Of a DNA stretch of 64,000 nucleotides, positions 4,709-63,151 are shown in pieces. The translations under genes and the position numbers were made by a program. How positions within the stretch are numbered: the first letter of the stretch is position 1; every line of letters starts with the position of its first letter. The DNA lies in IMG/VR virus record IMGVR_UViG_3300031996_000002. One strand, 5' to 3'. This stretch comes from an uncultured virus (IMG/VR IMGVR_UViG_3300031996_000002). Its lineage: Duplodnaviria; Heunggongvirae; Uroviricota; Caudoviricetes. The notes under the pieces are model-generated. The model ran no database searches, was not told where the DNA came from, and saw nothing but the letters and a program-made list of their open reading frames with translations.

Positions 4709-4716
4709 TACTGGTC

Positions 4717-7508: not shown

Positions 7509-7514
7509 TTGGGG

Positions 7515-29232: not shown

Positions 29233-29285
29233 TGGCAACCCGCACCCCCGAAAGTTCCGACCAGACAACAAGAAAGGCACACACC

Positions 29286-47461: not shown

Positions 47462-47980
47462 TTAGGCCTTCTTGGCGGCCGTCTTCTTCGCGGGCTTGGG
47501 CTCAGGAGCGTCGTCGTGCTTGACCTTGACCTTCGAGCCCGAGTCCGTGGTGAGCTGCTCCTGCTCGGTGGCCAGCAGCTTCTCAGCATCGGAGTGACCG
47601 GCCTGGTCGTGGGCCTGGGCGGCGTGGTCGAGCACGAGCTGGTGCAGCTGCTCCTGGACCTCGGCCTCCTTCTCGGCCTGCTCCATCTGTGGGGTCTTCT
47701 CCCACTCGTTCTGGGCCGACACGAAGCTCTGGTCACCCTCGATGGCAGCCAGCGCCTCCTCCTTGGTGCGCACCGCAGTGAACACGTGTGGGGGCAGCCG
47801 GTCGTAGCCCTCGCCGTACACCTTGTACAGCAGGCCGGTGTCGACGAAGGCCTCCAGGTAGCGCCAGGACTCGGCAAGCCGAGCCGGGATCTCCTCCCCG
47901 GTGGTGTGCTCGCCTTCCTCGGAGGTAAACGGGCGGCCCACGATGTACTTCACACCCTGGGTTCCGAGGTACTCGCTCAT
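47462..47980 (-). CDS. hypothetical head-associated protein
   Basis: between capsid and adaptor genes; AKK-rich tail. Confidence 0.6.
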   Translation of the reverse strand: MSEYLGTQGVKYIVGRPFTSEEGEHTTGEEIPARLAESWRYLEAFVDTGLLYKVYGEGYDRLPPHVFTAVRTKEEALAAIEGDQSFVSAQNEWEKTPQMEQAEKEAEVQEQLHQLVLDHAAQAHDQAGHSDAEKLLATEQEQLTTDSGSKVKVKHDDAPEPKPAKKTAAKKA

Positions 47981-48222
47981 GACTTCTTCTTCCTCGACGT
48001 CTTGGCCTTGTTGTACTCGCTGCGCAGCTCGGCAGTCTGTGCCTTGCGGTAGCTGCGAGAGGTGAAGGTCCGCTTCAGACCGTCCAGGTCGGCTGCTTCC
48101 CTGAATCCCTTGCCGCGGGCCTGGTTCCGCTTCTCGTGAGTCGCCTTGCGGGCCTGGACGTAGTCCATGAACCCCTTGGCGACCTCATCGGGACCGTGGT
48201 CCACACCCCACACCGATTGCAT
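47977..48222 (-). CDS. small basic protein starting with the SVWGVDH...VAK motif (putative capsid cargo)
   Basis: AGGAG RBS; MQSVWGVDHGPDEVAKG then a K/R-rich body. Confidence 0.65.
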   Translation of the reverse strand: MQSVWGVDHGPDEVAKGFMDYVQARKATHEKRNQARGKGFREAADLDGLKRTFTSRSYRKAQTAELRSEYNKAKTSRKKKS

Positions 48223-48239
48223 GTCTCTCCTAGATGTGA

Positions 48240-48277
48240 AGGAGGGGGCCAAGAGGCTAACCTCTCAGCCCCCTCCT
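48240..48277 (-). terminator. hairpin after the capsid gene
   Basis: AGGAGGGGGC...GCCCCCTCCT enclosing AGAGG/CCTCT. Confidence 0.55.
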
Positions 48278-48290
48278 ACAGGGTTCTTCG

Positions 48291-49286
48291 TCAGGCCACG
48301 ATGCCGTTGAGGAAGACGCCCACGTCCGGCGAGATCACTCGCATGTCGTAGGTCATCTCGCCCTCGATGCGGTCCGAGGCGATCTGCTCCATGCGGAACC
48401 GCTTGACCCGGATGCCCTGGCCGTTGCCACCGAGGTAGCCGTTCCAGGTGAAGGTGTAGCCCGCAGCGGGCTGCATCAGCGAGGGGCTGGAGGGCGTGTA
48501 GCACAGCAGCGCCGAGTTGGGGTTGGCGATGAAGCTGAAGGATGCAGCAGCGTCCTGGGCAGCTGCATCCGGCACCTGCGGGCCGGTGGCGGAGGTGGCA
48601 TACGACACCAGCACCTTGTCCACGTCGAAGAGCGTCGCGATCAGATCGGTCGAGACGATGCCCTTCTGGGTGTACTTGATCCGGTCGATGATCGCCGGGT
48701 GGTTCTTCAGGGCCTTGAGCACGTTCGCGCCGAGCACGAGGGTGTTGGCCTTGAAGCCGGTCTGCTGGACGAAGTTGACCTGCAGAGTCGACAGCTGGGA
48801 GATCGGGTCCGAGGTGGTCACCGACCAACGGAGCAGCTGGCTGCCCGTCGGGGAGGCGTCCACGCCGGTGTAGTCCGTGCCCCAGACGCCGGTCTTGAAG
48901 TAGGTGGCCGCCCAGTCGATGTCCCGCTTGAGCAGGAGCTGGTTGGTCACGAACGCGGTGGCGTCGCTGTCGAGCCGGAAGCGGGAGTCCGCGTTGGCAC
49001 GAAGCTGGTCGTCGATGTCCTTGTGGACGCCGTAGACGTGCGCGAAGTAGCTGTCCGTGGTCACGTTCCAGCCGACACCAGGGGTCTCGGTGGACGGGGC
49101 CCGGCGCTGCACGTCGGTACGACGCCAGTCGGACTTGGAGTACTTCCAGTAGAGGTCGGACTGCTTCGCAACAGAGACCCTCGGGAAGATCTTTGTCGCG
49201 ATGAACGCGTCAGACTTCTGGATGTAGGCGACCGAAACGTTCGTCAGCGGGGCGTTGACGTGCAGATCGCTCTGGGTGGGGTTCAT
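48291..49286 (-). CDS. major capsid protein (lambda E-like HK97 fold)
   Basis: LHVNAPLTNVSVAY.Q...FIA.KIFP.V.V.KQSD.Y N-terminus, size and position. Confidence 0.88.
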   Translation of the reverse strand: MNPTQSDLHVNAPLTNVSVAYIQKSDAFIATKIFPRVSVAKQSDLYWKYSKSDWRRTDVQRRAPSTETPGVGWNVTTDSYFAHVYGVHKDIDDQLRANADSRFRLDSDATAFVTNQLLLKRDIDWAATYFKTGVWGTDYTGVDASPTGSQLLRWSVTTSDPISQLSTLQVNFVQQTGFKANTLVLGANVLKALKNHPAIIDRIKYTQKGIVSTDLIATLFDVDKVLVSYATSATGPQVPDAAAQDAAASFSFIANPNSALLCYTPSSPSLMQPAAGYTFTWNGYLGGNGQGIRVKRFRMEQIASDRIEGEMTYDMRVISPDVGVFLNGIVA

Positions 49287-49298
49287 TCCTTACCTTCC

Positions 49299-49715
49299 TC
49301 AGCCGATCGTGAGCAGGACCGGGAAGAGCTCGTTAGCTCCCGAGGCCGCTGCCAGAGCGATGCCGTAGCACTTGTCGGTTCCCACGGTGCCGGTGATCCC
49401 GCGCCCGTTGGCATCGCACGTAACTGCAGCGCCCGCAGCGACGGCCGCTCCGGCCATCACGTTGGTCACCCCGCGGATGCCCACGGTGGCGGCCTGACCG
49501 GTCACCTGTGGCTTGTTCTGCATGACTCCGACGGAGACGTCGGTTGCCTTGGTCGTGGCCAGACCCACCTGGTGGGTACCGGTGACCTTGACGAACCGGT
49601 ACTGGAACCCGTAGTTCGGGTTAGCAGCACCGGGGGTGTTCGGCACGCCGGTGTACACCGCGACGGACGAGTCCGCGTTGAGCGAGATAGACCGGAGGCT
49701 CTCTTCGTATGCCAT
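49299..49715 (-). CDS. capsid decoration/cement protein (DUF2190-like)
   Basis: YRFVK, GV.QN.P..GQ.A.V...G...V.AG.AV..G, GIAL.AA motifs. Confidence 0.75.
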   Translation of the reverse strand: MAYEESLRSISLNADSSVAVYTGVPNTPGAANPNYGFQYRFVKVTGTHQVGLATTKATDVSVGVMQNKPQVTGQAATVGIRGVTNVMAGAAVAAGAAVTCDANGRGITGTVGTDKCYGIALAAASGANELFPVLLTIG

Positions 49716-49730
49716 TTACTTCCTCCGTTC

Positions 49731-50546
49731 TTATCGCTGGTTCTCGGCGAGGTACTCGTCGTAGGCCGCTGGGTTGGACTCGAACAAGTCCGCCAGCGCC
49801 TGCTCCCGGCTACCGCCGGACTTGGAGACCATCTGGTCGACGGTCGCCTGGGCCTGGGAGAAAATGTCCGCGTTGTCGCCGCCGCCCTGGTAGCCGACCT
49901 CGTCGAAGAGGGCCTCGCTAGCCGCGTCGAAGCACTTGGCGATCACCGCGCAGTCGTCCTCGGACATGTTCTCGGCGAGGCGCTTCATCACCGGGCCGAG
50001 CACACCGGGGTGCACGGGCAGGTTGTAGGACTTGGCGATCTCGGTGTACTCGCGGTCCAGGCGCATGTCGCGCTCGGACTTGGCGATCTCCTCGGCAGCC
50101 GCAGCCTGGTCCGCGTAGGCGTCCACGGCCGCCAGGGCCTTGGAGATGGCCTGGTCGCGGTCGTCGTCGGTGAGCGCCTTGGAGAGCTCCTCGCGAAGCA
50201 CCTCGGCAGCGCTGGCGCGCTTGGCCACCGGCTCGGGGCGGCGGAAAGCCTTGCCGACGCTGGCGAGCTCAGGCTCGTCCTCGTACTGCAGCTCCTGCTC
50301 GCCCTCGTCCTGTCCATCGAGCTCAAAGAGGTACGCCTGACCATCCTCGCCGTAGACGATGGCACCGTCCTCAAGGGTCTCGGCGTCGAGCGGGTTGCCC
50401 TGCTCGTCGAAGATGTCCATACCCTGTTCCTCCTCGCCGTCGTACGACTTGGCGATAGTGACTGATGCGTGTTGGTTCGCGCCCTTGTCGACCAGCGACA
50501 CCTCGTCGATGATCAGGTCACGAATTTCTCGTACGCGCTTGGTCAT
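49731..50546 (-). CDS. scaffolding protein with N-terminal EVSLVDxxAN segment
   Basis: acidic helical protein upstream of capsid; repeated IAKS; C-terminal NP..Y.EY. Confidence 0.75.
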   Translation of the reverse strand: MTKRVREIRDLIIDEVSLVDKGANQHASVTIAKSYDGEEEQGMDIFDEQGNPLDAETLEDGAIVYGEDGQAYLFELDGQDEGEQELQYEDEPELASVGKAFRRPEPVAKRASAAEVLREELSKALTDDDRDQAISKALAAVDAYADQAAAAEEIAKSERDMRLDREYTEIAKSYNLPVHPGVLGPVMKRLAENMSEDDCAVIAKCFDAASEALFDEVGYQGGGDNADIFSQAQATVDQMVSKSGGSREQALADLFESNPAAYDEYLAENQR

Positions 50547-50588
50547 TCCTTGTACCTCGTTCTAAGTTTCCTGATCTGTGCAACACCC

Positions 50589-52016
50589 TCAGTAGCCAAT
50601 GGCACGCATGGGGGTGTAGCTGCGTCCCCGGCCCTTGCGGTATTGCTTGATCCGGTCTGACCCGATGGCCAAACCGGCTGCGCCGACGCCCAGGGCACCA
50701 GCCTTGCCGAGCTTCTTCAAGGAGCCACGCACCACGGCACCAGAGGGAGAGTGGAGCCCCGTACCGGGTGCGTTCACCTTGAAGCTTGTGTTCTTCTTGG
50801 TGCGCCACTCTTCGCGAGACTTGTGACCGACCGCGCCACGCGCAGTCTGTGCAGCGCCCAGTGCCATGGCCCCCGAGCCGAACATGGTGGCGTTCTGGTA
50901 CCGGGACAGACGGTTCTGCCGCTTGCGCTCGGGGTCGTAGGCCTTGCCGATCTGGCGGTCGTGGCTCAGCGGGGTGAAGGTGCCCTTCTTGGGCTTGATC
51001 ACCTTGGACTTCACCGTCATCTTCGCGGGGTCCCCGAGCTTGATGCTCGGGACCCGCAGGCTCTTGTCCACCTCGGTGAAGGACTTGCCGACCCGGGCGC
51101 GACGCTGGCGGGCAATGGCCCGGTCGTGGCGCTTCTCGTTGAACCGGGCACCGGCCATCACGCCACCGGCGGCCAGCGCGGTGCCATAGCCAGCCAGGGC
51201 GGTGCTGCCGTGCGGCATGGACCGAGCGACGCTGCCCACGGCACGCAGGTTGGCCTTGCGAGCAAAGGCAGCCTCCGGGCCCCGGCCCTTGTTGGCCCAG
51301 GCTCCCTGAGCTCCGCCCTTGACGGCACGGCCCACGACATGGGCCTCCTTGAACGGGTCCTTGCCGCTGTAGATGCCATGCGCCAGCGCAGCAGCGCCCA
51401 CGGTGGAGCCCAGCCCGGCCACGCTCTTGGCCCGGCCACGGGTGCGACGAGAGTCCCTGGCCCGGCGCTCGTGCTCGGAGATGTTCTGCCAGTCCTTCTT
51501 GGAGATCTCCTCGCCCTGATGCACTCCACCAAGTCCAAAGTCCATCCCGGGCTCCCAGCTCTTCTTGATCTTCTTCTGGCCTTCGGCCTTGGTGTACGCC
51601 GCGAAGTTGTAGCCGCCCACCCCACCGACGCCCGAGGAGACGATGCCGGTGTTGATGGCAGTGTTGTTGAGCTGGTGGGACAGCTTGGTGTACTTGGCCG
51701 CCCGCACTGCGGCCGGAGAGTGGACGAAGGCACCCGCCGCCTCGTTGGCCTTGGCAGCGGTTCGGCCCACCCGACCGGCGGCTATCGAGCCACCCTTGAG
51801 TCCCAGGGCGCCCAGGCCCAGGGTGGAGGTGGTCACCGCGATGTGGCTCTGCAACTTCTTGCGCCGGGCCAGCTCGGACTGGGACATCACCCGCTTGGAG
51901 ACCCCGGCGCCTTCCAGCACCTCCGCGGTCTTGTGTCTCCCGGCCATGACGAACTGTCCCGAGAGCGGGTCACGAATGCTCTTGGGACGTCCGGCCTGGA
52001 TGGGGGTGAAGGTCAT
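50589..52016 (-). CDS. basic Gly/Ala-rich modular protein (putative head cargo polyprotein)
   Basis: ATG at 52016 overlaps upstream stop; VSKR, IKKS, ISKK, VGKS, VDKS, IGKA separate cationic modules with hydrophobic helices. Confidence 0.65.
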   Translation of the reverse strand: MTFTPIQAGRPKSIRDPLSGQFVMAGRHKTAEVLEGAGVSKRVMSQSELARRKKLQSHIAVTTSTLGLGALGLKGGSIAAGRVGRTAAKANEAAGAFVHSPAAVRAAKYTKLSHQLNNTAINTGIVSSGVGGVGGYNFAAYTKAEGQKKIKKSWEPGMDFGLGGVHQGEEISKKDWQNISEHERRARDSRRTRGRAKSVAGLGSTVGAAALAHGIYSGKDPFKEAHVVGRAVKGGAQGAWANKGRGPEAAFARKANLRAVGSVARSMPHGSTALAGYGTALAAGGVMAGARFNEKRHDRAIARQRRARVGKSFTEVDKSLRVPSIKLGDPAKMTVKSKVIKPKKGTFTPLSHDRQIGKAYDPERKRQNRLSRYQNATMFGSGAMALGAAQTARGAVGHKSREEWRTKKNTSFKVNAPGTGLHSPSGAVVRGSLKKLGKAGALGVGAAGLAIGSDRIKQYRKGRGRSYTPMRAIGY

Positions 52017-53416
52017 CGTCCCTGCCGACGCCCACTGAACGCAGTGATCTGGTTGGACTTCAGACCGGTCTGGATGTCGCCGCTCTTGACCCCGGCGTTC
52101 CAGGCCTTGGCGCGTGCGCGGGTGCCGATCTTTTCCTGGGCGTGAAATGAGCCGCCCATCGCGCCCACCTCGGCCCCAATCGTGCCGCCAACCACAGCTC
52201 CGCTCCTGCGACGCGTGAGTGCAGTGCCGACCACGGCACCGGCGCCTGCACCAATCCCAGCGCCTCTGGCGGTCGAGCGACCGAGCTGGTGCCAGTTGGC
52301 CGAACGGTTGGTGCCGTTCGGAGAGAAGAACGCGCCTTCGCGGCCCGCAACCTTGCCCGCTCGCCTGCGCGCCCCCGGCTGGGCAAAGGCAGCCCCCTGG
52401 CTCTTCAAGCTCTTGTTGCCGACCAGGTCCTTGCTGATGTCCTCCGGGCCGTGATCCACGCCCCACACCGACACGCCCACGCTGCTCTCCATGTTCTTCC
52501 TGACGCCTAGGCGGTTGCCCAGTGCGGACTGCTGACCTGCGTTGAACCTCGACCGCCCCTTGATCCGGCTGGCGGCGGCACCGAACTGGCCCTGCGAGGC
52601 CCCGGTGGGCACCCCGGTGGGCTTGGCCATCCCACCGATCTGCTTCAGGCCGTTGGCCACGCTGGGTCCGGTCGGCGGCTTGGGGATCTTCGGCATGCCT
52701 GCCGCTCGCGCCAGCACCGGGGTGAAGGCCTTGTGCACCTTCTGGTTCTTGTAGTAGCCCTCCTTGTGGGCGAAGTGCGCACCCACGCCGCCGCCCACCG
52801 CGGGAACCACCAGCGCGCCACCCAGCTCGTATCCGGCAGCCCGCAGCTTCTTGCCCTTGCGGCCAGCCGCCGCAGCGTGCCAGCCGGGGAACACCGCCGC
52901 GGTGGCCATGCGGCCGAAGCTGGCGTTCTCACGGGGCTCGCGCTGGGCCTTCTTGCTGACCTCTTCGAGGTGGTCGACACCCCAGACGGACACAGTGCTC
53001 ATACTCTTGGTCACCTGACTCTTCTTGTTGCGGCCCACCGGGGCCAGTCCGTATTGGGTGCGGCGGTAGCCCTTGTACTGCTTGCGACCGCTGATCTCGT
53101 TCCCGGCGACGGCGCCGCCATAGCCACCGACCGCGGCCTGCGGCCAGCCCGTGACGGCTCGCTCGAACTTCTGGTTCGGCACCCGGGCGCCGGTCTTGGT
53201 GGCCAGCCACGTCACGCCCTTGCGACCTCTGGCGTTCTTGGCCGCCCAGGCGGCTCCTCGTCCGGCGTTGACCCCCCGCCCGGCCAGGGCAGCTCCACCC
53301 AGCCCGGCGGCCAGGCCGGTGAACCCGGCGATCTGCGCGGTGTGGGCGATCTTGGCGTCCTTGGCCTTGGAGCCGTGCTCCTTGTACAGGGCCCGCTCCT
53401 GGCGGATGCTGCTCAT
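52013..53416 (-). CDS. basic Gly-zipper modular protein (putative head cargo polyprotein)
   Basis: two SVWGVDH motifs; VTKS, VSKK, VHKA, VRKN, ISKD; GxxxG helices. Confidence 0.65.
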   Translation of the reverse strand: MSSIRQERALYKEHGSKAKDAKIAHTAQIAGFTGLAAGLGGAALAGRGVNAGRGAAWAAKNARGRKGVTWLATKTGARVPNQKFERAVTGWPQAAVGGYGGAVAGNEISGRKQYKGYRRTQYGLAPVGRNKKSQVTKSMSTVSVWGVDHLEEVSKKAQREPRENASFGRMATAAVFPGWHAAAAGRKGKKLRAAGYELGGALVVPAVGGGVGAHFAHKEGYYKNQKVHKAFTPVLARAAGMPKIPKPPTGPSVANGLKQIGGMAKPTGVPTGASQGQFGAAASRIKGRSRFNAGQQSALGNRLGVRKNMESSVGVSVWGVDHGPEDISKDLVGNKSLKSQGAAFAQPGARRRAGKVAGREGAFFSPNGTNRSANWHQLGRSTARGAGIGAGAGAVVGTALTRRRSGAVVGGTIGAEVGAMGGSFHAQEKIGTRARAKAWNAGVKSGDIQTGLKSNQITAFSGRRQGR

Positions 53417-54303: not shown

Positions 54304-54392
54304 GCCTCAATCATCGAGCGGCCCGCAAGACTGGTTGGTCTTTCTACGCTTGAGGCAGGAAACTCCGTCGAAAATGAGGTCAAGGGGGTCTG

Positions 54393-54979: not shown

Positions 54980-54981
54980 TC

Positions 54982-55338: not shown

Positions 55339-57284
55339 ACCACGTCGTAGGGCAGCGTCTTGGAGAAGTCGTTGCCGCCCTGGTTGCGGGCGCTGACCGC
55401 ACGGAAGGTGCCGGGGTTGCGGGCACTCCAGGTCGCCCTGGAGTCGTGGATCTCCCCGTCCTCGACGTTGATGTAGTCGCTCACCATGATGGTCGGGGTG
55501 GCCTCGTCGATCTCGTCGGACAGGCTGATGGCGTCCGAGAGCACCCCGGCGGGCACCAGCTTGGTCTCGTACTGCCCGGTCTCCGGTCCCCGGTAGACCT
55601 CGATCATCGGCTGGTCGCGCTCCTCGTCACCGTGCAGGTACCAGTTGAGCGTCTCTGCGTAGGCGTTCCGGTTGACCATCCAGGTCCGGCCGGTGCGAGG
55701 GTCGGTGTAGTGGTACTGGTTGGAGGCCAGGTCACCGGCGTCGAAGTAGCCCAGCTGCTGGTCGACCCAGGACTCCCAGTAGCCCTGCAGGGACTTGGGC
55801 ACCATCCCGTTCTTGACCCAGAGCTGGTCCTGGTCGATGTGGGCCAGGTCGCCGCTGCGGTTGAAGCCGGGGACCAGGACCGTGTACAGCGGCATCTCCC
55901 CGACCACCCAGCGGTCGCTCTTGCCCGGCGGGACCGGGGCGGGCTTGTCCATCCCCAGCGAGGAGCGCACGACGTCGTCGGAGGGGAAGCGAGCCTTGGG
56001 CAGGGAGACCTTGGGCAGGCCGCGCTTGGGCTGGTCCAGCGAGGTCTTCTCCTGGCCGACTTCGCTCAGTGAGGTCTTGGCGTTCAACGAGACCCGCTTG
56101 AGGGAGGAGCGGCCGAGCTTGTCGCGCCCCAGGGAGACCGGCACCCCCGGCAGCGGCGGCAGGGTGCCCGGCAGCGGGGGCAGCTCCTGCTGCCCCTCGA
56201 CAACGTCCGGGATGGTGATGGGGGTCAGCTTCACCCGCGGGGCCGGGTCCTTGAACCCCAGCTTGGGCTTGGCCTTGGAGCGGGACTCCTGGCGCGAGAA
56301 CCGGCCGTGGCGGTCCCGGTCGTAGGGGTCGTCGCCGAAGTTCTTGCCGACCAGCTCCTCCTCGCGCACCGGGCGGAACAGGCTGGTCACGTCGAAGGCC
56401 AGGTCGATGTCGCAGCGGCAGTTCGGGTGGGTGGGCGGCGACCAGAACTTCCCGGCGTCGGTGACGAACGGCTGGGCGATCGGCACCTCGACCTTGTGCA
56501 ACGGGCCGCACACCGCGCAGACCCGCTCGTCCTTGGCGGTGCGCCAGACCCGGGTCGCCTCGGGCGGGATGGTGCCCTTCTGAATGCCGTACATCCAGAC
56601 CAGCTGCTTGGCCTGGCTACGGGCCGTCCAGGCCTCATTCTCCCCGATCTGGTGGGCCCTGGTGGCCAGCGCCTTGTCGATGATGGCGTCGGCCTTGGCG
56701 TCACGGCGTGAGGACACCGGGGAGGCGGAGAGCACCTTGGGGTCCTCACCGGTCCAGATGGTCACCAGCGAGTTCATCGTGCGCGGTGGCGTGCCGATGG
56801 CGTGCACCACGTTGCTCAGCGCCTTGCGGGGCGGGACCTTGCGGTTGACCTGGGCGTGGAACCCCGAGACCGCGGCCTCGATGGTCACCTCGTTCAGCGA
56901 GGCCCCCAGTTCGGCGGCATACCCCTCGGCGATGTCCAGCAGGTACTCCTGGGATATATCTCCGGCCTGGGCCTGGGCCAGCCCCTCCAGGTAGCCCGCC
57001 ACCAGGTGCGGGGCCACCAGCTGCACCCAGCGGGGGATGAAGGCGTTGGCGGTGGCCTGGGCCACCAGGGACAGGTCCGAGGGGTCCTTGTCCTTCATCT
57101 CCTGGTTCAGCCGCCGCTTGAGGTACCTGTGGTACAGCAGGAAGGCAGCCCCCAGCCCCGCCGCCACCAGGACCAGCGAGTGGTCCGGGTTGGGGTGGTC
57201 GATCCGATCGGCCAGGGCCTGCTCATCGGGGGTGAGCTCGGCCCCGGCCAGGTTCGGGGAGGGGTCCAGCAGGGGCTGACTCAT
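55305..57284 (-). CDS. MuF-like minor head protein with C-terminal extension
   Basis: WRTAKDERVCAVC..LH...PP.HPNCRC MuF signature followed by about 370 extra residues. Confidence 0.8.
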   Translation of the reverse strand: MSQPLLDPSPNLAGAELTPDEQALADRIDHPNPDHSLVLVAAGLGAAFLLYHRYLKRRLNQEMKDKDPSDLSLVAQATANAFIPRWVQLVAPHLVAGYLEGLAQAQAGDISQEYLLDIAEGYAAELGASLNEVTIEAAVSGFHAQVNRKVPPRKALSNVVHAIGTPPRTMNSLVTIWTGEDPKVLSASPVSSRRDAKADAIIDKALATRAHQIGENEAWTARSQAKQLVWMYGIQKGTIPPEATRVWRTAKDERVCAVCGPLHKVEVPIAQPFVTDAGKFWSPPTHPNCRCDIDLAFDVTSLFRPVREEELVGKNFGDDPYDRDRHGRFSRQESRSKAKPKLGFKDPAPRVKLTPITIPDVVEGQQELPPLPGTLPPLPGVPVSLGRDKLGRSSLKRVSLNAKTSLSEVGQEKTSLDQPKRGLPKVSLPKARFPSDDVVRSSLGMDKPAPVPPGKSDRWVVGEMPLYTVLVPGFNRSGDLAHIDQDQLWVKNGMVPKSLQGYWESWVDQQLGYFDAGDLASNQYHYTDPRTGRTWMVNRNAYAETLNWYLHGDEERDQPMIEVYRGPETGQYETKLVPAGVLSDAISLSDEIDEATPTIMVSDYINVEDGEIHDSRATWSARNPGTFRAVSARNQGGNDFSKTLPYDVVYFEPNDLFDF

Positions 57285-60199
57285 CAGTCCTCGTCAGGGT
57301 CGACACCGAGCTGCTTGAGGTGCCCGCGCACCAGGGTCGCGTCGGTGGGCTTCAGCTCGTCCAGGGCGTCCTGGATGTCGCGGTTCATCATCGCCTTGTC
57401 CAGGGCCCCGCTCTTGTGGTCACCCAGGGCCCGGGCGATCACGTTGTAGACCCCGGCCACGTCCTTGTTGCCGCCCTTGGCCGCCGCGCCAGCGGCCTCG
57501 CGGAACTTGGACTGGGCAACCCCCAGCACGTCGCTCACCGTGGGGTTGAAGTTGGTGTTGCCGAGCTGGCTGGTCTGGGCCGGGGTCTCCTGGGGCTGCT
57601 TGCTGCGCACCGCCAGGTCCTTGCCCGACGCCTGCGACGAGGCGCTGTCCAGGTTGTCCAGGTTGGCCTGCAGCCTGCGCAGCCGGTGCAAGGCCTCGGA
57701 CTGCTTGAGGATGGCCTTGGCCCGCTTCTCCGCCTCCGAGCCACCACGGTTGGCCACGCTCATGACGCTGCGGATCTGCTCGGCGGTGGCGCCGTACCCG
57801 GCAGCCTTGGCCGCGAAGGACTCATCCAGCCCCTGGCGCAGGGCGTGGCCCATGTAGCCGTACATGGCGGCCAGCTTGCCCAGCTCCTCCTGGGTCTTGT
57901 CCCCGGGCTGGACGTTGAACAGCGCGCCAGGAGCCACCCGGCGCCACTCCGCTTCGATCTCCGGTGCGTTGGCGGCACCGGAATACCCGACCCGCCTGCC
58001 CTTGTCGCTGTCGAAGGCGAACGGGGTCTTGGGGTTCTCGGCAGCCTTGGCCTCGTCGTACATCGACCCGCCGCGCATGGCCTCGACGGCCACGAACAGA
58101 GCCCGGGCCTTCTCGTGCACGTCGGCGTGCTTGGGGTCGCCCTCGATCTTGGTCTGGACGTTGTTGAGCTCGTCCATCAGCTCCTGGCGCTTGGTGGCGT
58201 TGTTCGCGATGGAGTCGAAGTCGTCCCCGGCAGCCCGAGTGATGATCGGCGGCAGCTCATCGAAGTTGCTCTGGTAGAGCTTGGCCAGCTTCTGCAGCGA
58301 CTCGTTGCCGCGGGTCTGGGCCTGGCCCTGGGCGATCTGCTCGCGCAGCTTGGCCTCTCGCGCCAGGGGGTTCTTGGCGTCCTCGGCGTTCTCCTGCTCC
58401 ACCGGGGTCAGCCGTGCACCACCGGCGTGGGCCCGCTCGGGGTTGTTGGCCCAGTTGGCGTAGTTGAGCCGGTCGGCGCTGATCTTCTTGCGCCCGGTGA
58501 TCGTGTCGTCGAAGTAGCCCTCCTTGGCACCCTCGGGACGGATGTACCGCGGCTTGACGTAGCCCTTGTCGGTCTCGTTGGTGAACGGGTCCTCGACGGT
58601 GCCGTGCTCGGGGTCGCGGTGCTTGTACTCGACGTTGGCGATGTAGTACGGGAACTGCTCACGCAGCGCCTCCATGGACGCCGCGTAGCCCTCCCCGTCG
58701 AGCCGGTAGTTGCGCTGGGCCTTCTTGTCCAGCGCCGCGCTGATCAGCTCGCTGCGGGCGATCTTGTACTTGCGCTCGTCGTCGTCGTTGTCCTTGCGCG
58801 CCCGGGCATCGATGTCGGCCAGCTCGGCCTTGGTCAAGGTGGGACGGCTCTTGTACTCGTCCTCGCGCTCCTTGATCAGGTCCTCCAGCTCGGTGGAGGG
58901 CATCCCGAAGCCCGCGTACTCACCCTCCACCTGGTCGCGGATCTCGGCCCGCTCCTCGGGGGACAGCGACCGGCGGCTGACCGTCTCGGACTTCACCGCA
59001 TCCAGGGTCGAGGCGTAGCGGCTCACCATCTGGGCGGCCTTGTCGTTGTAGCGACGGCCGCCGCGGAAGTCGTCCTCGAAGTTGATCGTGAAGATCCCAG
59101 AGCGGCTGACCACCGTGACGGATCGAGCGCCAGACACCAACCCCGTGTAGATGTCTTCGGTGGTCAGCCCGCCCTGGGACCGGGAGCGCACATAGTGCCC
59201 TCCCTGTAGGCCCTTCAGATTCTTCAGGTTGAAGGGCAGGTAGTGGTCGTCGGCGTACCCCACGGCCTGAGTGATGATCTTGCCATCGGCATTGATGATC
59301 ACGCCTTCGGAGGGCGGGATCTTGCCGCTGGCCTGCTGCAGCTTGGTCCACTTCTTCTTGGGCAGACGCTCCATGAGGTAGCCCGCGGCGGCCCGCTGCG
59401 AGGCGTGGGTACGCATCGCCGGGGTGAGCTCGTCGGTCTCGTCGTAGCGCATCAGGTTCTTGGAGTTGGTGTTGGCCGCCTGGATCAACGCGCTGTCCGG
59501 GGTGCGCTCGGTGCCGCGGTAGCGGTAGGCGGTGCGGCGCAGGTGCGGACCGACCACCTTCTCGGCCTCCGGGCCGTACTTGCCGAAGAACCCGGCCACC
59601 CCGGTGGCGGCCTGCATCTTGGGCCCGCCCACCCCGTGCAGGGCCTGGGACCCGGCGGCGATCCGGTCGTAGGTGCGCTTGTTGGTCGAGGCGTACAGCG
59701 GGTCGGACTTGTTCCAGGAGTCCTGGAAGGCGGTGGTGCGCCCACCGGTCTCGGCCAGTGCCGAGGTGAGGTTGAACTCCGGGCCGACCATGACGTTGCC
59801 GCGCTGGTACTTCTTGCCCTTGGGGGTCTTGCCCTGCTTCTCCCGGGAGATGGACACCGACCAGCGGCCGCCCTTCCCGCGGGGCTGCTCGCGGTGGTAG
59901 AGCTCCTCGTAGGGGGTGCTGCCCTTGGACACCACACCCACCACCGCAGCGGCCTGCTTGGCCCCGTCGACGGCTCCCTTGGAGACCAGCGAGACGGCGG
60001 CCTTGGCCACGGTGTCGGCCAGCCGCTTGTGCACCGCGGCGGTGTGCCGCTCCAGGGTGCGCCGGTTGGCCTCGATGTCAGCCATCAAGGTGTCGTAGGT
60101 GGCCAGCCGCATGAACATCTCGGCCTCATCTGCATCCATCTTCGACACGATGCTGCGCACCTTGGCCGCAAACTGCGCGTTGTAGAACTCGTCCATCAA
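57284..60199 (-). CDS. large putative head/ejection protein
   Basis: AGGAGG RBS before TTG; five VxK motifs in the first ~95 aa then QPRGKGGRW; coupled to MuF by TGATG. Confidence 0.65.
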   Translation of the reverse strand: MMDEFYNAQFAAKVRSIVSKMDADEAEMFMRLATYDTLMADIEANRRTLERHTAAVHKRLADTVAKAAVSLVSKGAVDGAKQAAAVVGVVSKGSTPYEELYHREQPRGKGGRWSVSISREKQGKTPKGKKYQRGNVMVGPEFNLTSALAETGGRTTAFQDSWNKSDPLYASTNKRTYDRIAAGSQALHGVGGPKMQAATGVAGFFGKYGPEAEKVVGPHLRRTAYRYRGTERTPDSALIQAANTNSKNLMRYDETDELTPAMRTHASQRAAAGYLMERLPKKKWTKLQQASGKIPPSEGVIINADGKIITQAVGYADDHYLPFNLKNLKGLQGGHYVRSRSQGGLTTEDIYTGLVSGARSVTVVSRSGIFTINFEDDFRGGRRYNDKAAQMVSRYASTLDAVKSETVSRRSLSPEERAEIRDQVEGEYAGFGMPSTELEDLIKEREDEYKSRPTLTKAELADIDARARKDNDDDERKYKIARSELISAALDKKAQRNYRLDGEGYAASMEALREQFPYYIANVEYKHRDPEHGTVEDPFTNETDKGYVKPRYIRPEGAKEGYFDDTITGRKKISADRLNYANWANNPERAHAGGARLTPVEQENAEDAKNPLAREAKLREQIAQGQAQTRGNESLQKLAKLYQSNFDELPPIITRAAGDDFDSIANNATKRQELMDELNNVQTKIEGDPKHADVHEKARALFVAVEAMRGGSMYDEAKAAENPKTPFAFDSDKGRRVGYSGAANAPEIEAEWRRVAPGALFNVQPGDKTQEELGKLAAMYGYMGHALRQGLDESFAAKAAGYGATAEQIRSVMSVANRGGSEAEKRAKAILKQSEALHRLRRLQANLDNLDSASSQASGKDLAVRSKQPQETPAQTSQLGNTNFNPTVSDVLGVAQSKFREAAGAAAKGGNKDVAGVYNVIARALGDHKSGALDKAMMNRDIQDALDELKPTDATLVRGHLKQLGVDPDED

Positions 60200-60226
60200 C
60201 AGACCTCCTGGGTCTATCTTCTCGGG

Positions 60227-60433
60227 TCAGTCCTCCCAGGCGATGGTGGTGGCTCCGCCATGGCCGTGAATGGCCTGCACATCCTCGATCCCAGGCCAGA
60301 TCACGGTGGAGGACCGCTCCCCTCGCCAGCGCACCACCACCTGCCCGTCGCGGAACTGCACCCCGTCGGCCACGATCCCGGTCCCGGAGATCCCCGAGGG
60401 ATCGCGGTGGCGGACCAGGTGGAAGCGACGCAT
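60227..60433 (-). CDS. conserved small phage protein
   Basis: F.L.R..D.SG.SGTG.VA.GV.F.DG.V..RW...IHGHGG.T motif. Confidence 0.7.
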   Translation of the reverse strand: MRRFHLVRHRDPSGISGTGIVADGVQFRDGQVVVRWRGERSSTVIWPGIEDVQAIHGHGGATTIAWED

Positions 60434-60684
60434 CAGAACTTGCCGCCGGTGACGAAGTGCAACACCAGCCAAGCCATGAAGGCCAGCAGGGCGAAGCGCC
60501 TCAGTCGTAGGCCCACCGTCCTGGGACGCTTGCCGTCATCCTTGGAGCCCGCCTGGGGGATGGCGAACCACTTCCAGACGTGCTCGGACAGGGTGTCCCC
60601 GTTGACCTTGTTGGTCAGCGCGAAGCCCTCCTCGACCGCGAACGCCGCGACCCAGAGCAGCCAGCCGACCGTCCACAGGCTCAT
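60433..60684 (-). CDS. 2-TM membrane protein (lysis-associated)
   Basis: W..W...F...E..AL......TLSEHVW...W...HF pattern; follows the holin. Confidence 0.6.
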   Translation of the reverse strand: MSLWTVGWLLWVAAFAVEEGFALTNKVNGDTLSEHVWKWFAIPQAGSKDDGKRPRTVGLRLRRFALLAFMAWLVLHFVTGGKF

Positions 60685-60920
60685 GCCGGTGGCTGCACTG
60701 ACTCTTGCTGGTGCTCGGCCTGGGGGTCCTTGTTGGGTACCGACCAGACGACGCTGGCGGTCACCACACCGGTGAGCAGCGAGACCAGCCACTCGGTGCC
60801 GGTGATGGTGCTGCCTCCCGGCGTGCCGTTCTGGGTGGCCGCGATGAGCGAGCTGGCAACCGGGGCAACGAAGCCGACGATGGCCTTGGCGTAGGGCAGG
60901 ATCTGGTCGACCTTGGACAT
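60681..60920 (-). CDS. holin
   Basis: two TM helices, YAKAIV...EWL...VW.VPN; directly after endolysin. Confidence 0.7.
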   Translation of the reverse strand: MSKVDQILPYAKAIVGFVAPVASSLIAATQNGTPGGSTITGTEWLVSLLTGVVTASVVWSVPNKDPQAEHQQESVQPPA

Positions 60921-61760
60921 CTAGAACGCTCCGGTGTTGAGCCGCCGCTGCAGGGCGGAGATGGTGACCGGACCGGCGATGCCGTCCGGGGTGACCTTGA
61001 GGCGGCGCTGGACGCCCTTCCAGGTGACCGGCCCCAAGATGCCGTCCACGCTGACCCCCACGACCTTCTGGACCGCCCTGATCAGCAGGCTGGGCCGGGA
61101 GATGACCCCGTCGACCGGGGTGTGCAGGATCTGCTGCCAGCGAGCGATGGTGCGCACCCCCAGGATCCCGTCCACGGTCAGCTGGGCCACGAACGGCTTG
61201 GCCGGGTACTTGGGCTTGGCCGGGGTCGGCGGGGTGGCGGGCAGGTTGGCGTGCACCAGGGTCAGGAAGAAGTTGACCGGGAAGTTCGGGCCCGGGTCCC
61301 AGTGGGTGGAGCGCTTGAACACCCGGGACACCTGGACGTGGGTGGTGATGCCCTTGGTCTTGCCATCGGCCAGCTGGGCGTCGGTCAGGTAGGAGGCCGG
61401 GATCTTGTAGGCGGCACACCAGTTGGCCACCTCGATGGCCCCCCGGGTCAGGATCGCCTGGGAGGACGCGTCGTCCCACTGCCCGGTGGTCTGCCCGGCT
61501 CGACCGGCCATCTCCAGCTGCAGCCCATCGGCGTTGGCTCCCGGGGCGGCCCAGGCGGTGTCGTTGTCGTCCACGTAGCGACAGGTGGAGTCGGTGTCCA
61601 CGCCCAGGTGCGCGCTGGCCTGGGTGGTGGGCTTGGCGAAGTAGTTGCCCACCGCCTCGGCGACCGAGCCGTCCTCGTCGGTCTCCATGGTGTGCAGCAC
61701 GATCACCCGGATCGGGGAGATCCGGCCCTCGTACTTGTTGGGGCTGTAGATCGTGCTCAT
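60921..61760 (-). CDS. endolysin: N-acetylmuramoyl-L-alanine amidase with peptidoglycan-binding repeats
   Basis: IVLHT.E, ASAH, AWAA..AN, H.DPG..F motifs; repeated [VP]DG.[LA]G..T C-terminal repeats. Confidence 0.9.
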   Translation of the reverse strand: MSTIYSPNKYEGRISPIRVIVLHTMETDEDGSVAEAVGNYFAKPTTQASAHLGVDTDSTCRYVDDNDTAWAAPGANADGLQLEMAGRAGQTTGQWDDASSQAILTRGAIEVANWCAAYKIPASYLTDAQLADGKTKGITTHVQVSRVFKRSTHWDPGPNFPVNFFLTLVHANLPATPPTPAKPKYPAKPFVAQLTVDGILGVRTIARWQQILHTPVDGVISRPSLLIRAVQKVVGVSVDGILGPVTWKGVQRRLKVTPDGIAGPVTISALQRRLNTGAF

Positions 61761-63151
61761 CGGATTCTCCGGATCGCGTCGGGCGGACACTTGCGCAGGC
61801 GACCACGCCTCTGTCCTGAGGATCCGGCCACGTGCAACTCACTCGGATCCGGGCCCATCTTGGAGACCTCCGAACGGATGCCATCCCAGGGCTGGTAGGA
61901 CTTGTTCACCTTGTGGTCTCGATAGGCCGCGACGCCCACACCAGCTCCTACGGTGCCGCCCGCGGCATACCGGATGGCTCGGTTCCGGCGCTTGCGTCGC
62001 CTCCAGTCGACGTACTGGTTGCCGTGGAACGCATCACCGGGAGTGCCAAAGTCCGGCTTGGGCTCAGGGGCCTTGTATCCCCAGGCCGGGGAGTAGAAGT
62101 GTTGGCCCGGACCCAGTCTCTTGTCGTCCTCCGTCTTGATCCGTGCGCCCCGAGCGATGGCGATTTTGTCCTGGACCATGCGGTAGTCACCGGCTTCCCG
62201 GGGGCTGAGACCTGAGCCAACGAGATGAGAAAGCATCTGGTACCCCGGGTCGGAGGCCGCCGCCGCGTATCCGCTGTGGGCGCTCGCTTCGCCCGCACCA
62301 GGCTGGATGCGGAAGTAGGACGCCCCGGTCATGTCGGCCCTGGCCTCCTCGCTGCCCCGCTTGCCGTTGAGGTGGTTCTGGAAGGTACGGTACGAGGAGC
62401 GCTTGGGGGTCAGATGGGCTATCTCGTGGGCCAGGGTCTGCGCGTCGGTGTCAGCGGGGGCAACGATGTAGCGTTCGCCCCGGCGACCGCCCAAGGTCAC
62501 GGCGTAGGCAAGAGCGTTGCGGTCGATCTTCCCCGGATTGGCCTGGATGAGGGTGATCTTCCCGCGCTTGGTCTGGATGGTCCGAGTCGGCTGGCCCTCG
62601 TGGATGTTGATCGCATCCCGCATGCTGCTCAGGTACCGGCGATAGGTCACGGCGTTGTTGGGGTCCACCTCGCCGGTGGCCGTGTTGAACCGGATCCGCT
62701 GCTTGCCCTTCTTGCCCATCCGGGTGGCCTCATAGCCATGGGAAGAGCGCAGCTTGGCGCCTCGACGCAGCGCTTCAGCGCCCGCCTCCGTGGCCTTGAC
62801 GTACCCCTGGCCGGGGATGAAGGACTTGGCCACCGCCGGGCGCAGCCGCCCCTGTCCGCTGGCGGTCTCGCGGATCAGCTTGTCCTTGTCGTTGAGGCTG
62901 GACACGTCGTAGGAGACGCTGCGGATGGTCTCGGCCGCCTTGGTGCGTCCGGTGGTGATCACCTTGGAGCCCACCCGCTTGACGGTGGGCAGGTGCCGAT
63001 CCACCAGAGGCCGCGGGGTGGGCTTGCGCCGCTTGGCGGCATACGGCTCGACCCGGTCGGCCACCCGGGAGAGCTTGACCGTCCAGTGCGCCCCAGCCAC
63101 GTGTGGGATGTCCCGTGGGGCCATCTTCTCCACACCCAGGTCGTCATTCAC
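61757..63151 (-). CDS. basic modular protein with HExxH metallopeptidase-like domain (putative head cargo)
   Basis: TLAHEIAH...EEARAD; FHGNQY; VEKM, VAKS, VNKS, VSKM; C-terminal Gly-rich helix. Confidence 0.65.
   Translation of the reverse strand: MNDDLGVEKMAPRDIPHVAGAHWTVKLSRVADRVEPYAAKRRKPTPRPLVDRHLPTVKRVGSKVITTGRTKAAETIRSVSYDVSSLNDKDKLIRETASGQGRLRPAVAKSFIPGQGYVKATEAGAEALRRGAKLRSSHGYEATRMGKKGKQRIRFNTATGEVDPNNAVTYRRYLSSMRDAINIHEGQPTRTIQTKRGKITLIQANPGKIDRNALAYAVTLGGRRGERYIVAPADTDAQTLAHEIAHLTPKRSSYRTFQNHLNGKRGSEEARADMTGASYFRIQPGAGEASAHSGYAAAASDPGYQMLSHLVGSGLSPREAGDYRMVQDKIAIARGARIKTEDDKRLGPGQHFYSPAWGYKAPEPKPDFGTPGDAFHGNQYVDWRRRKRRNRAIRYAAGGTVGAGVGVAAYRDHKVNKSYQPWDGIRSEVSKMGPDPSELHVAGSSGQRRGRLRKCPPDAIRRIR

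Follow-up and report, generated by a model that had tools for sequence, protein, structure and literature searches.

Head-region genes of a soil phage carry a shared acidic tag and Lys site that may serve loading into the prohead and cutting there

Genes of the head region and their modules

The window, that is, the whole stretch of 64,000 nucleotides analysed here, comes from an uncultured virus of the Caudoviricetes (IMG/VR IMGVR_UViG_3300031996_000002), and the genes considered all lie on its minus strand (Table 1). The major capsid protein (MCP), shared with 80 related loci at 63-100% identity, reaches 21.6 bits against Pfam Phage_cap_E, under the cut-off of 22.9, and the MuF-like protein reaches 28.8 bits against PF04233, slightly under a cut-off of 29.6 that 10 of 12 homologs exceed. 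The protease had been called XkdF-like in a preliminary description of this DNA, an identity that we confirm (PF14550, 69.1 bits; cut-off 24), Pfam grading XkdF as a 'putative' serine protease only. Frame-specific GC places the start of the ORF at 50589 at position 52016 (475 aa), and a start at 52466 was rejected on this ground; for the ORF at 47977, the start is most likely the ATG at 48222 (81 aa), with AGGAGA 5 nt upstream.

Table 1. Features of the window discussed in the text, with positions counted from its first letter
Feature	Position	Strand	Basis or remark
p91	47977..48222	-	81-aa basic protein, pI ~10.4 (91-aa ORF)
Major capsid protein (gpE-like)	48291..49286	-	phrog_1005 E 4.2e-86
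Cement/decoration-like protein	49299..49715	-	PF09956 Phage_cement_2, 26.8 bits (cut-off 24)
Scaffold	49731..50546	-	acidic, pI 4.2; 12/12 lysines in [LIVM]xK, 10 in [VI]xK
gz2	50589..52016	-	475-aa basic Gly/Ala-rich cargo-slot protein; start from frame GC
gz1	52013..53416	-	467 aa; three basic Gly-zipper modules, two acidic linkers
XkdF-like prohead protease	53413..54303	-	PF14550 E 4.5e-19; XkdF domain 53437-53814
MuF-like head morphogenesis protein	55305..57284	-	phrog_3517 E 1.1e-10; C-terminal half variable
p971	57284..60199	-	conserved 971-aa protein adjoining MuF
p464	61757..63151	-	basic modular protein, upstream of lysis cassette

What lies between protease and scaffold varies, and this slot holds one to three ORFs in no fewer than 33 of 39 related loci. 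In gz1, acidic linkers of 18-22 aa (pI 4.3-4.6), SMSTVSVWGVDHLEEVSK (52952-53005) and NMESSVGVSVWGVDHGPEDISK (52430-52495), separate basic modules (pI 10.4-12) and have [VI]xK on both flanks, the upstream sites lying at 53006-53014 and 52496-52504. Its middle module matches stand-alone genes of 104-110 aa in other phages (loci L046, L047 and L016) end to end at 41-49% identity, and a gz1-type linker is the N-terminal leader of those genes. The preliminary description had proposed that the motif-bearing ORFs encode polyproteins cut into effector or core peptides; sequence comparison bears this out to the extent that gz1 is a modular chain. The 'effector' label is unsupported, because no enzyme or toxin domain was recognised in any cargo module with Pfam. 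The cargo modules resemble internal proteins of a basic Gly-zipper type, and the Gly-zipper Pfam matches of gz1 (24.9-25.6 bits) fall slightly under their cut-offs. In gz2 a module begins past VSK (51894-51902), positions 51498-51560 encode a tag-like acidic linker, SWEPGMDFGLGGVHQGEEISK, and IGK (50943-50951) is followed by AYDPE; the module of residues 39-164 is kept in 19 of 21 cargo homologs, where [VI][SA]K precedes it whether it opens an ORF or lies inside one.

Similar modules are joined to the protease, whose N-extension (53836-54303) consists of two basic Gly-zipper-like modules and the acidic stretch RQLTEVHDGEVSK, an architecture kept in 35 homologs. In its AF2 model, for which we found no solved structural relative, residues 131-156 have pLDDT <50 and the blocks of residues 161-280 average 57-91. 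The C-terminal half of the MuF-like protein is alignable in only 4 of 28 homologs; at its junction, just past the MuF domain (VGK, 56343-56351), 16 of the 28 have [VI]xK, and three (L011, L022 and L052) have the tag described below, as KSAFG[VI]VxK or KSVWGVVSK. For p971 there were no Pfam, PHROG or PDB-sequence matches, and its AF2 model (mean pLDDT 64.8) gave no fold match; its N-terminal 92 residues are helical and hold five [VI]xK sites, of which site 18 recurs in 14, site 72 in 10 and site 90 in 11 of 24 homologs, 8-9 of these homologs being without the N-terminus. The ORF of p464 had been counted among the head genes and is actually upstream of the lysis cassette. It has no Pfam match, and its VAK107-109 (62825-62833) is the start of a HExxH-containing domain (HEIAH, 62414-62428), while its C-terminal end (61829-61909) reads VNK, SYQPWDGIRSEVSK and MGPDPSELHV in succession. 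This domain (residues 107-274) is a separate gene of 200-219 aa in two relatives (L016:14188-14847 and L060:13272-13874), located in the post-MCP slot and opening with an 11-15-aa peptide that ends in [VI]xK.

An acidic tag and its adjoining Lys

The preliminary description had concentrated on [VI]xK and overlooked the real signature, an S-A/V-F/W-G-V-D-H tag. When the window is compared with 80 related IMG/VR loci, the acidic core S-[AV]-[FW]-G-[VI]-[DE]-H occurs 171 times, each time on the gene strand, and the three reverse frames contain none, counts that apply to phylogenetically related loci and to a pattern fixed after inspection of the data. With L001 left out, 168 occurrences remain, 133 of which have a Lys at most 9 residues downstream. 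At P3 of this Lys stands I (66), V (59) or F (8), so that V/I accounts for 125/133 (94%), against 10.1% of 5817 lysines in the background. The distance from core to Lys varies between 2 and 9 residues, in keeping with two separate elements.

The position of the Lys depends on that of the tag. N-terminal leaders with a downstream Lys make up 116 of the 168 cores, and 34 of the 35 cores without a downstream Lys have one at most 9 residues upstream; internal linkers have Lys on either side. Upstream of C-terminal tags, Y and V are equally frequent at P3 (14 each). The Lys thus changes side with the tag and is always between the tag and the attached protein. As a leader, the tag opens 91 distinct small basic Gly/Ala-rich proteins that fall into 33 unrelated sequence clusters; in relatives it also closes other ORFs, with the Lys before the tag. 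This grammar is both conserved and modular.

In the window, p91 begins with the leader MQSVWGVDHGPDEVAK (48175-48222), and in relatives small post-MCP ORFs begin with MQSAWGIEHGDAVSK or MISYWGIDHGDEISK. A leader HMM made from sequences of relatives finds p91 at E 4.8e-9, p91 being one of its 91 training sequences, and the two gz1 linkers, both outside the training set, at E 0.02 and 1.4e-4; look-alikes of the tag in the window's protease, gz2 (its linker taken by itself) and p464 were not significant with this HMM. An independent DNA-pattern scan of IMG/VR returned 71 translated matches, 66 of them N-terminal and 64 with [VI]xK at most 10 residues away. All ten homologs retrieved with a leader protein query came from JGI, ENA or Logan, and the family is known from metagenomes only.

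Aliphatic-x-Lys in the scaffold, the protease and elsewhere

Every [VI]xK listed in the preliminary description is present: in the scaffold IAKS three times, VGKA, VAKR, ISKA and VSKS (with VDK, VMK and IAKC as unlisted extras); in the protease IAKL, VAKR twice, VSKN and ISKV (extras VLK, IEK and VTK); in gz2 VSKR, IKKS, ISKK, VGKS, VDKS and IGKA (extra VIKP); in gz1 VTKS, VSKK, VHKA, VRKN and ISKD (extra IPKP); in p464 VEKM, VAKS, VNKS and VSKM; in the ORF at 47977 VAKG; in the MuF-like protein VGKN, at residue 312; and in p971 the five sites, within residues 18-92. That description had asked whether the motif exceeds the Lys background, and judged in this way it stands out in the scaffold and the protease only [observed/expected in composition-preserving shuffles: scaffold 10/1.0, p<0.001; protease 8/3.0, p=0.003]. 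The two Gly-zipper ORFs do not pass (gz2 7/4.2, p=0.12; gz1 6/3.6, p=0.14), and there is no excess in the MuF-like protein (4/3.6), p971 (6/6.0), p464 (4/3.1), the ORF at 47977 (1/0.5) or the remainder of the window (72/67.8). Relatives, L001 again left out, give 471/87 for the scaffold and 238/158 for the protease; their cargo-slot ORFs as a class are without bulk excess (156/149), and MuF (75/106) and p971 (120/130) are at or below expectation. As a mark of module boundaries, then, the motif survives as a conserved subset of sites at boundaries and not as a bulk excess outside scaffold and protease; three of the four MuF sites, and one of six in p971, lack conservation. Some sites probably have a structural role and are not cut, because the AF2 model puts ISK166-168 of the protease in the first beta-strand of the protease domain.

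The scaffold signal is specific in spacing and residue. [LIVM]xK is found 12 times against 2.4 expected (p<0.001), with no excess at i+1, i+3 or i+4 or when E, R or D replaces K. Eight of the ten [VI]xK sites recur, to within +-6 columns, in 25-41 of the 41 homologs. Of seven isolated phages tested, six show an aliphatic-x-Lys excess in the gene that follows the XkdF-like protease (observed/expected: RHph_TM3_3_9 21/7.7, KPP23 15/6.8, RDJL6 17/6.0, Mulvp2 16/7.2, RcZahn 21/10.8 and CRP-6 17/6.7), the exception being psiM100 (8/8.2); the capsid and portal proteins of the tested phages show none.

Load-then-cut as a candidate mechanism and its alternatives

We propose, at a probability of roughly 55%, that the tag is a capsid-targeting and recognition signal, that the prohead protease cuts after the Lys and that the system provides an expandable slot for internal head proteins; it would be a new member of the class that includes the T4 capsid targeting sequence (CTS) and the phiKZ/SPN3US propeptides. 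The signal is bipartite, with an acidic tag core and an aliphatic-x-Lys site between the tag and the attached protein, and it takes three positions: that of an N-terminal leader (p91), of a C-terminal tail (in relatives) or of an inter-module linker with a site on each side (gz1). We infer targeting, cleavage, the enzyme and the fate of the modules. The tag may draw the small, strongly basic Gly/Ala-rich modules into the prohead during assembly or show them to the protease; the XkdF-like prohead protease, which carries two modules of this kind itself, would then cut after Lys, freeing the modules and chopping the acidic scaffold into short peptides able to exit, and the freed basic modules would remain alongside the DNA as internal proteins of the head. 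Modules are gained and lost, as genes or as fusions, in the protease-scaffold slot and in a second, post-capsid slot.

ORF boundaries within the motif, and modules shuffled among phages, are also what one would see if the linker were a nucleotide-level boundary sequence that promotes module recombination and carried no peptide signal. Yet Ser in the tag is encoded by both codon families (AGY 65, TCN 68), the four Gly codons are about equally used (35, 34, 32 and 32), third positions are free and the motif is absent from other frames and the other strand. Selection on the tag, judged from these Ser and Gly codons, is thus at the protein level, and the nucleotide-level explanation is already disfavoured, to the point that we give it almost no credence. 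It is also very improbable that [VI]xK has no shared function and arises from helical or coiled-coil periodicity in the scaffold and from chance and high Lys content elsewhere. The counts in cargo, MuF, p971 and p464 do match expectation, and several conserved sites are in predicted helices, but in four scaffolds the excess is limited to the i+2 spacing and to Lys (versus Glu, Arg and Asp), conserved sites also occur in variable acidic regions, and V/I predominates at P3 next to the tag.

Two other explanations keep a function for the peptide. The tagged Gly-zipper proteins might be small membrane proteins serving lysis timing, superinfection exclusion or envelope crossing, with the peptide a sorting or regulatory signal that has nothing to do with the capsid; many modules resemble membrane hairpins, Gly-zipper families match weakly and some tagged genes are 12-26 kb from the capsid gene. 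We regard this as improbable, since the modules are extremely basic with few hydrophobic residues, the tag is acidic, no Sec, Tat or lipobox signal was seen by eye, and the tag is found in the N-extension region of the protease, at the MuF junction of three homologs and in ORFs between protease and scaffold. Alternatively, the peptide could only bind or anchor its protein to the scaffold, the inner capsid surface or the portal and stay uncut, with [VI]xK as part of the epitope. Encapsulin cargo-loading peptides are short, N- or C-terminal, and load diverse cargo into an HK97-fold shell; such targeting peptides work at the range of positions, N-terminal, C-terminal and internal, at which the tag is found, and VGK in the scaffold is followed by SAFF, which looks like the start of the tag. 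In encapsulins, though, the protease step and DNA are absent and the consensus differs. Against binding alone speak the variable core-Lys spacing, the constant location of the Lys on the cargo side, a protease gene adjacent in every case and an aliphatic-x-Lys pattern that spans all scaffold lysines and is enriched in the scaffolds of phages without any tag. We consider binding without cleavage unlikely.

The proposed loading and cutting has a close parallel in T4, where IPI-III and Alt, like the proteins here, have a short conserved N-terminal peptide on diverse small basic proteins, where this shared peptide also ends at the consensus site of the prohead protease, gp21, and where the core is cut small at the same motif. 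The gp21 motif is L/I-x-E. Here, by contrast, P1 is Lys and not Glu, the tag sequence differs, the protease belongs to XkdF/PF14550 and not to the gp21 family, the tag is also found at C-termini and as a polyprotein linker, and the genome is siphovirus-like, ~80 kb, the system being known from sequence alone. In Mu (I/Z), PBSX (XkdF) and psiM100 (ORF12, one 406-aa gene), protease and scaffold are likewise fused or adjacent, and the gene directly after the XkdF-like protease is the scaffold gene in six of six isolated bacterial phages examined; what differs here is that up to three cargo ORFs lie between the two genes and that the protease has a cargo-like N-extension.

A CTS is found on diverse internal proteins of T4 (PMC3012670). 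In the giant phages phiKZ, 201phi2-1 and SPN3US, many head and ejection proteins have propeptides cut at a 3-residue motif; SPN3US gp245 removes N-terminal propeptides, cutting after AXE, and the protease (gp175/gp245) cleaves itself and cuts long propeptides several times (PMC10052503). Their motif and protease family differ from those here, most of their propeptides are long (111-254 residues), the propeptides do not share one tag, and polyproteins of stand-alone modules are not known from these phages. For DarB of P1, an N-terminal signal of ~30 residues is enough to bring a reporter inside the capsid (PMC9024508); that signal belongs to a single protein, in contrast to the family-wide conserved tag here, and a linked cleavage motif is not part of that account. 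MuF polymorphic toxins of temperate phages combine, as here, a conserved MuF N-terminal part with a variable C-terminal domain (PMC5576092), whereas the MuF-like protein here has no recognisable toxin or immunity domain and its junction has [VI]xK, with the tag in three homologs. The head genes of this soil phage would appear to encode a new version of the T4-type strategy of loading proteins into the capsid and then cutting them.

Organization of the head region and its relatives

Genes of the window, whose G+C content is 63-70%, were mapped from frame-specific GC, giving crude, heuristic calls that are consistent with the family matches (see table). The head region, on the minus strand, runs from about 63150 to 47460, the tail module includes a 1945-aa tape measure, and besides the replication genes there is a separate AAA ATPase. 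On frame-specific GC the long upstream extension of gz2, to 52466, is not coding. A lysis cassette lies between p464 and p971, within the block of structural genes; its endolysin belongs to phrog_12609 (E 8e-36), and two of the three small ORFs beside it fall in phrog_3555 and phrog_7499. Between the MuF and protease genes the opposite strand carries one or two small ORFs (54982-55338, plus strand, in the window) that are kept in the closest relatives (L001, L002 and L011) at 118-128 aa and 79-120 aa and have no family match.

Features of the window, with [VI]xK counts as observed/expected after shuffling the residues of each protein
Feature	Coordinates	Strand	[VI]xK	Remarks
Replication genes	1957-8699 and 29232-30806			DnaE-like Pol III alpha with PHP domain; Toprim/DnaG-like primase; DnaB-like helicase
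p464	61757-63151	minus	4/3.1, not significant	first in minus-strand reading order
Endolysin and three small membrane ORFs	60227-61790	minus		
p971	57284-60199	minus	6/6.0, not significant	
MuF-like protein	55305-57284	minus	4/3.6, not significant	
XkdF-like protease	53413-54303	minus	8/3.0, p 0.003	
gz1	52013-53416	minus	6/3.6, not significant	basic Gly/Ala-rich ORF
gz2	50589-52016	minus	7/4.2, not significant	basic Gly/Ala-rich ORF
Acidic scaffold	49731-50546	minus	10/1.0, p<0.001	
Cement-like protein, then gpE-like capsid protein		minus		after scaffold in reading order
p91	47977-48252	minus	1/0.5, not significant	real start probably 48222
Remaining window ORFs, pooled			72/67.8	

Scanning IMG/VR with the capsid protein yielded 80 loci at 63-100% identity. 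One of them, L001, is the same phage as the window and was excluded from counts; the loci are kin, so the counts do not represent independent events. Gene maps of 39 loci show a conserved synteny of p971, MuF, protease, a variable stretch, scaffold, cement and capsid. In at least 33 of these loci the variable stretch holds one to three plus-strand ORFs, 124-1145 aa in length, and the heuristic caller found no ORF there in the other six; ORFs were probably missed in L060 and L074, because the gap between protease and scaffold contains a C-terminal copy of the tag described below. No close cultured relative was found in the phage collection: the sole megablast match of the region was one of 100 nt to Streptomyces phage Caelum, and tblastn with gz1 returned none. 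Arthrobacter phage Laroye has the capsid protein in common with the window phage, and neither an XkdF-like protease nor cargo ORFs are annotated beside its putative scaffold gene.

The lysine signature of scaffold and protease

According to the preliminary description, polyproteins of the head module are punctuated by a [VI]xK motif at which the neighboring protease would cut. All the motifs it named are present in the window. Measured against shuffled residues, enrichment over the Lys background holds for the scaffold and the protease, and the proposal's own enrichment test fails for the other six of the eight ORFs, in which the count does not significantly exceed expectation. Shuffles across the family agree with the window, with observed and expected counts of 471 and 87 for the scaffold, 238 and 158 for the protease, 156 and 149 for the cargo-slot ORFs (gz1, gz2 and their counterparts between protease and scaffold), 75 and 106 for MuF, and 120 and 130 for p971. 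A motif chosen post hoc, [DE][VI][SA]K (10 occurrences in the eight ORFs against 0.5 expected), was abandoned in favor of the tag because the latter could be checked independently.

The signal is strongest in the scaffold, where every one of the 12 lysines lies in an [LIVM]xK motif (12 observed, 2.4 expected) and where, of the ten [VI]xK sites, eight recur within six alignment columns in 25-41 of 41 homologs. Helix periodicity could be invoked for such regular spacing, and is disfavored because the excess is confined to the i+2 spacing and to Lys: the controls at i+1, i+3 and i+4 gave 1/2.3, 3/2.2 and 1/2.3, respectively, and substituting another residue for Lys gave 8/6.4 for Glu, 3/2.8 for Arg and 8/5.7 for Asp. 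The Lys-specific i/i+2 pattern would fit a substrate bound in an extended form, with P3 (the aliphatic residue) and P1 (the Lys) on one face. The signature is, moreover, common to distant XkdF-type head modules. In six isolated phages of Proteobacteria the gene after the XkdF-like protease has an excess of [LIVM]xK (RHph_TM3_3_9, 21/7.7; KPP23, 15/6.8; RDJL6, 17/6.0; Mulvp2, 16/7.2; RcZahn, 21/10.8; CRP-6, 17/6.7) that is absent from their capsid and portal proteins. The archaeal virus psiM100 has no such excess (8/8.2). Its ORF12 (L277), a fused protease-scaffold, has [LIVM]xR at 8/3.8 (p=0.02), a surplus that may reflect a shifted specificity. One of the eight conserved scaffold sites, VGK97, stands in the midst of an acidic region that is variable elsewhere, with SAFF behind it in most relatives; in the scaffold ORFs of L002 (8444-9553), L071 and L075 a basic Gly-rich insertion directly follows this VGK, placing a cargo-like module inside the scaffold gene.

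The protease, which sits in the head module beside the scaffold and capsid genes, matches PF14550 (Peptidase_S78_2/XkdF) over residues 164-289 with 69.1 bits against a cut-off of 24, and the G001 copy scores 71.1 bits. Four serines (S181, S214, S237, S282) and two histidines (H221, H284) are invariant in 35 sequences. Foldseek with the AF2 model gave no PDB match at E<=0.001, and we found neither a solved structure nor mapped cleavage sites for XkdF-like prohead proteases. The N-terminal extension comprises two basic Gly-rich pieces of 55 aa, with acidic stretches behind them; in the model, pLDDT is below 50 at residues 131-156, and within the XkdF domain (161-280) it averages 57-91 over blocks of 10 residues. 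ISK166-168 belongs to the first strand of the XkdF domain, where its role is probably structural. Predicting a complex between protease residues 169-296 and p91 residues 1-45 was uninformative (score 0.01). Among 38 protease homologs, 24 repeat the N-terminal sequence of the capsid protein behind their first [VI]xK (MNPTQSDLHV in the capsid protein; ...EL[VI][SA]K before MNPTQSDL... in the protease N-extensions, from L002 to L078), which could be a second targeting device mimicking the capsid N-arm. The window protease has no such copy; p464 ends in VSK followed by MGPDPSELHV (61829-61858).

An acidic tag and the modules that it joins

Listing the contexts of 150 unique [VI]xK sites in cargo-slot ORFs brought out a recurring acidic peptide with the core S-[AV]-[FW]-G-[VI]-[DE]-H. 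A regular expression for this tag, [SAT][AVLI][FWY]G[VIL][DE]H, set post hoc after the data had been seen, matches 171 times in the window and the loci; every match is on the gene strand, and the three reverse frames have none. Among the 168 occurrences that remain without L001, 116 stand at the N-terminus as leaders of the form M-x-(core)-...-x-x-K. A Lys follows within nine residues in 133 of the 168, with Ile (66), Val (59) or Phe (8) at P3; V/I thus accounts for 125 of 133, compared with 10.1% of the 5817 other lysines of the tagged proteins. The 35 tags with no downstream Lys are C-terminal tails, many directly before the stop codon, and 34 of them have a Lys within nine residues upstream, mostly four residues ahead of the core. 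The P3 of this upstream Lys, over 46 unique internal or C-terminal tags, is Val in 14, Tyr in 14, Phe in 3 and Ile in 2. Internal copies are flanked by a site on both sides. The tag thus follows a grammar: the side of the Lys switches with the position of the tag, and the Lys always stands between tag and protein body. It lies 2-9 residues from the core His, Ser occupies P2 in 68 of 104 cases, and P1' is mostly Ala, Gly or Leu.

A repeated junction of this kind might be a boundary sequence maintained for recombination. This reading is disfavored by codon usage: the tag Ser is encoded by AGY 65 times and by TCN 68 times, and the Gly uses its four codons 35, 34, 32 and 32 times. Since both codon families of Ser and all four codons of Gly are used, selection acts on the tag peptide and not on the DNA; the conservation is at the protein level.

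A separate DNA-pattern scan of the whole of IMG/VR gave 71 translated matches, of which 66 have a Met within three residues upstream and are N-terminal, and 64 have [VI]xK within 10 residues downstream; some lie 12-26 kb from the capsid gene on the same contig. In genome contigs (596 Gb) a degenerate 23-nt tag pattern had more than 121 matches, dispersed over unrelated phyla, judged near chance level and uninformative as to the host. The 91 unique leader proteins, with lengths of 62-452 aa and a high content of Lys, Arg, Gly and Ala, form 33 sequence clusters; no Pfam domain was found in the six that were scanned. A leader protein used as query found just 10 homologs in a set of 5.8 billion proteins, all metagenomic. 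In the cargo ORFs of L071, L075 and L011 a second type of linker, [VI]KK-(x)-N-D-P-F-E-[VI]-x-K, takes the place of the SAFGVDH tag between modules.

A six-frame search of the window with an HMM trained on 91 leaders from relatives, p91 included, found three significant copies: the N-terminus of p91 (E 4.8e-9, itself one of the 91 training sequences) and two internal copies in gz1 (E 1.4e-4 and 0.02), neither of which was in the training set. Look-alikes in the protease (TEVHDGEVSK), gz2 (GLGGVHQGEEISK) and p464 (WDGIRSEVSK) were not significant. When gz1 is cut in silico at [VI]xK, it yields basic pieces (137 aa; 74, 17 and 61 aa; 138 aa) with a pI of 10.4-12; the two linkers between them are acidic, the 18-aa one with pI 4.6 and the 22-aa one with pI 4.3. 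Together with the linker that serves as its leader, the middle module aligns over the full length, at 41-49% identity, to complete genes of 104-110 aa in L046, L047 and L016, located after the capsid gene. This alignment with stand-alone genes identifies gz1 as a fusion whose units exist as genes of their own in other phages. It is a polyprotein of independent units joined by two repeated linkers, and genes and polyproteins are in this respect interchangeable as modules. Residues 39-164 of gz2 are conserved in 19 of 21 cargo homologs, starting directly after VSK39-41; in relatives the module comes after [VI][SA]K, either deep within an ORF or, in L024, after the five residues MTISK at the ORF start.

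Outside this core cluster, the proposal that [VI]xK marks module boundaries is borne out in part, from few sequences. The MuF-like protein (28.8 bits to PF04233 against a cut-off of 29.6, with 10 of 12 homologs at 30.8-47.4 bits; phrog_3517 'head morphogenesis', E 1.1e-10) has VGK312-314 just past the MuF domain, and [VI]xK occurs there in 16 of 28 homologs, the junction reading KSAFG[VI]VxK or KSVWGVVSK in L011, L022 and L052. Its three other sites are not conserved (0-5 of 28 homologs). In p971, sites 18, 72 and 90 lie in predicted helices; of 24 homologs, 14, 10 and 11, respectively, retain them, and 8-9 of the 24 have no N-terminus. The longer homologs carry an additional peptide at the N-terminus, which ends in [VI]xK ahead of a D-P-x-F-N motif. 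A conserved motif, (E)HPR-x(3-6)-G-[RKQ]-F, follows a [VI]xK junction in the MuF (56250-56340) and p971 (about 59850-59900) families alike. Whether p971 is a portal was tested by profile searches of Pfam, PHROG and PDB, none of which gave a match; with its AF2 model (mean pLDDT 64.8), Foldseek returned nothing at E<=0.001 and VIA-align wide matched helical hairpins only (Z <= 8.3). The HExxH-containing domain of p464 starts where VAK107-109 lies; in L016 and L060 this domain forms a gene of 200-219 aa in the post-capsid slot, after an 11-15-residue peptide ending in [VI]xK. A homolog search with the HExxH region found one protein.

A candidate load-and-cut system

The most economical reading of these patterns is a T4-like load-and-cut system with a different protease and a different tag. 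As in the capsid-targeting/propeptide system of T4-type phages, one short terminal peptide is common to otherwise unrelated proteins, and the putative protease site stands at the junction of tag and cargo and is repeated in the scaffold, here as seen in sequence. The T4-type protease, of the gp21 family, cuts after Glu, whereas here the protease is XkdF-like and [LIVM]xE is not enriched in the scaffold (8/6.4). The tag would direct or present proteins to the prohead, the XkdF domain would be the cleaving enzyme, the cut would fall after the Lys, and the basic modules would remain as internal proteins. The C-terminal half of the MuF-like protein is variable, and only the four closest of 28 homologs align past about residue 480; it matches no Pfam domain, of a MuF polymorphic toxin or otherwise, either in the window or in 12 homologs. 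We found no support for the 'effector' role that the preliminary description gave to the cargo modules.

We tentatively propose, with a probability of about 0.4, that a portable capsid-loading tag (S-A-F-G-V-D-H-G plus aliphatic-x-Lys) and the XkdF protease family together constitute an open-ended cargo system of soil phages. The specificity of XkdF would then be for an aliphatic residue at P3 and for Lys at P1; any module behind, before or between tags would be packed into the head and freed by cleavage, and genes and polyproteins would interconvert through gain or loss of stop and start codons inside the tag. We found neither this tag nor a Lys rule for XkdF proteases described in the non-subscription literature searched for the tag and for prohead cleavage by XkdF.

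If true, aliphatic-x-Lys would be the first substrate rule for XkdF-like prohead proteases, which are encoded in the head modules of phages that infect Proteobacteria and high-GC hosts, and the tag of 14-17 residues could be tried for loading foreign proteins into phage heads, with the T4 CTS as precedent. The hypervariable stretch of these head modules would be explained as a cargo slot, and the system would show that a virion payload can grow by the insertion of modules between a protease and its scaffold.
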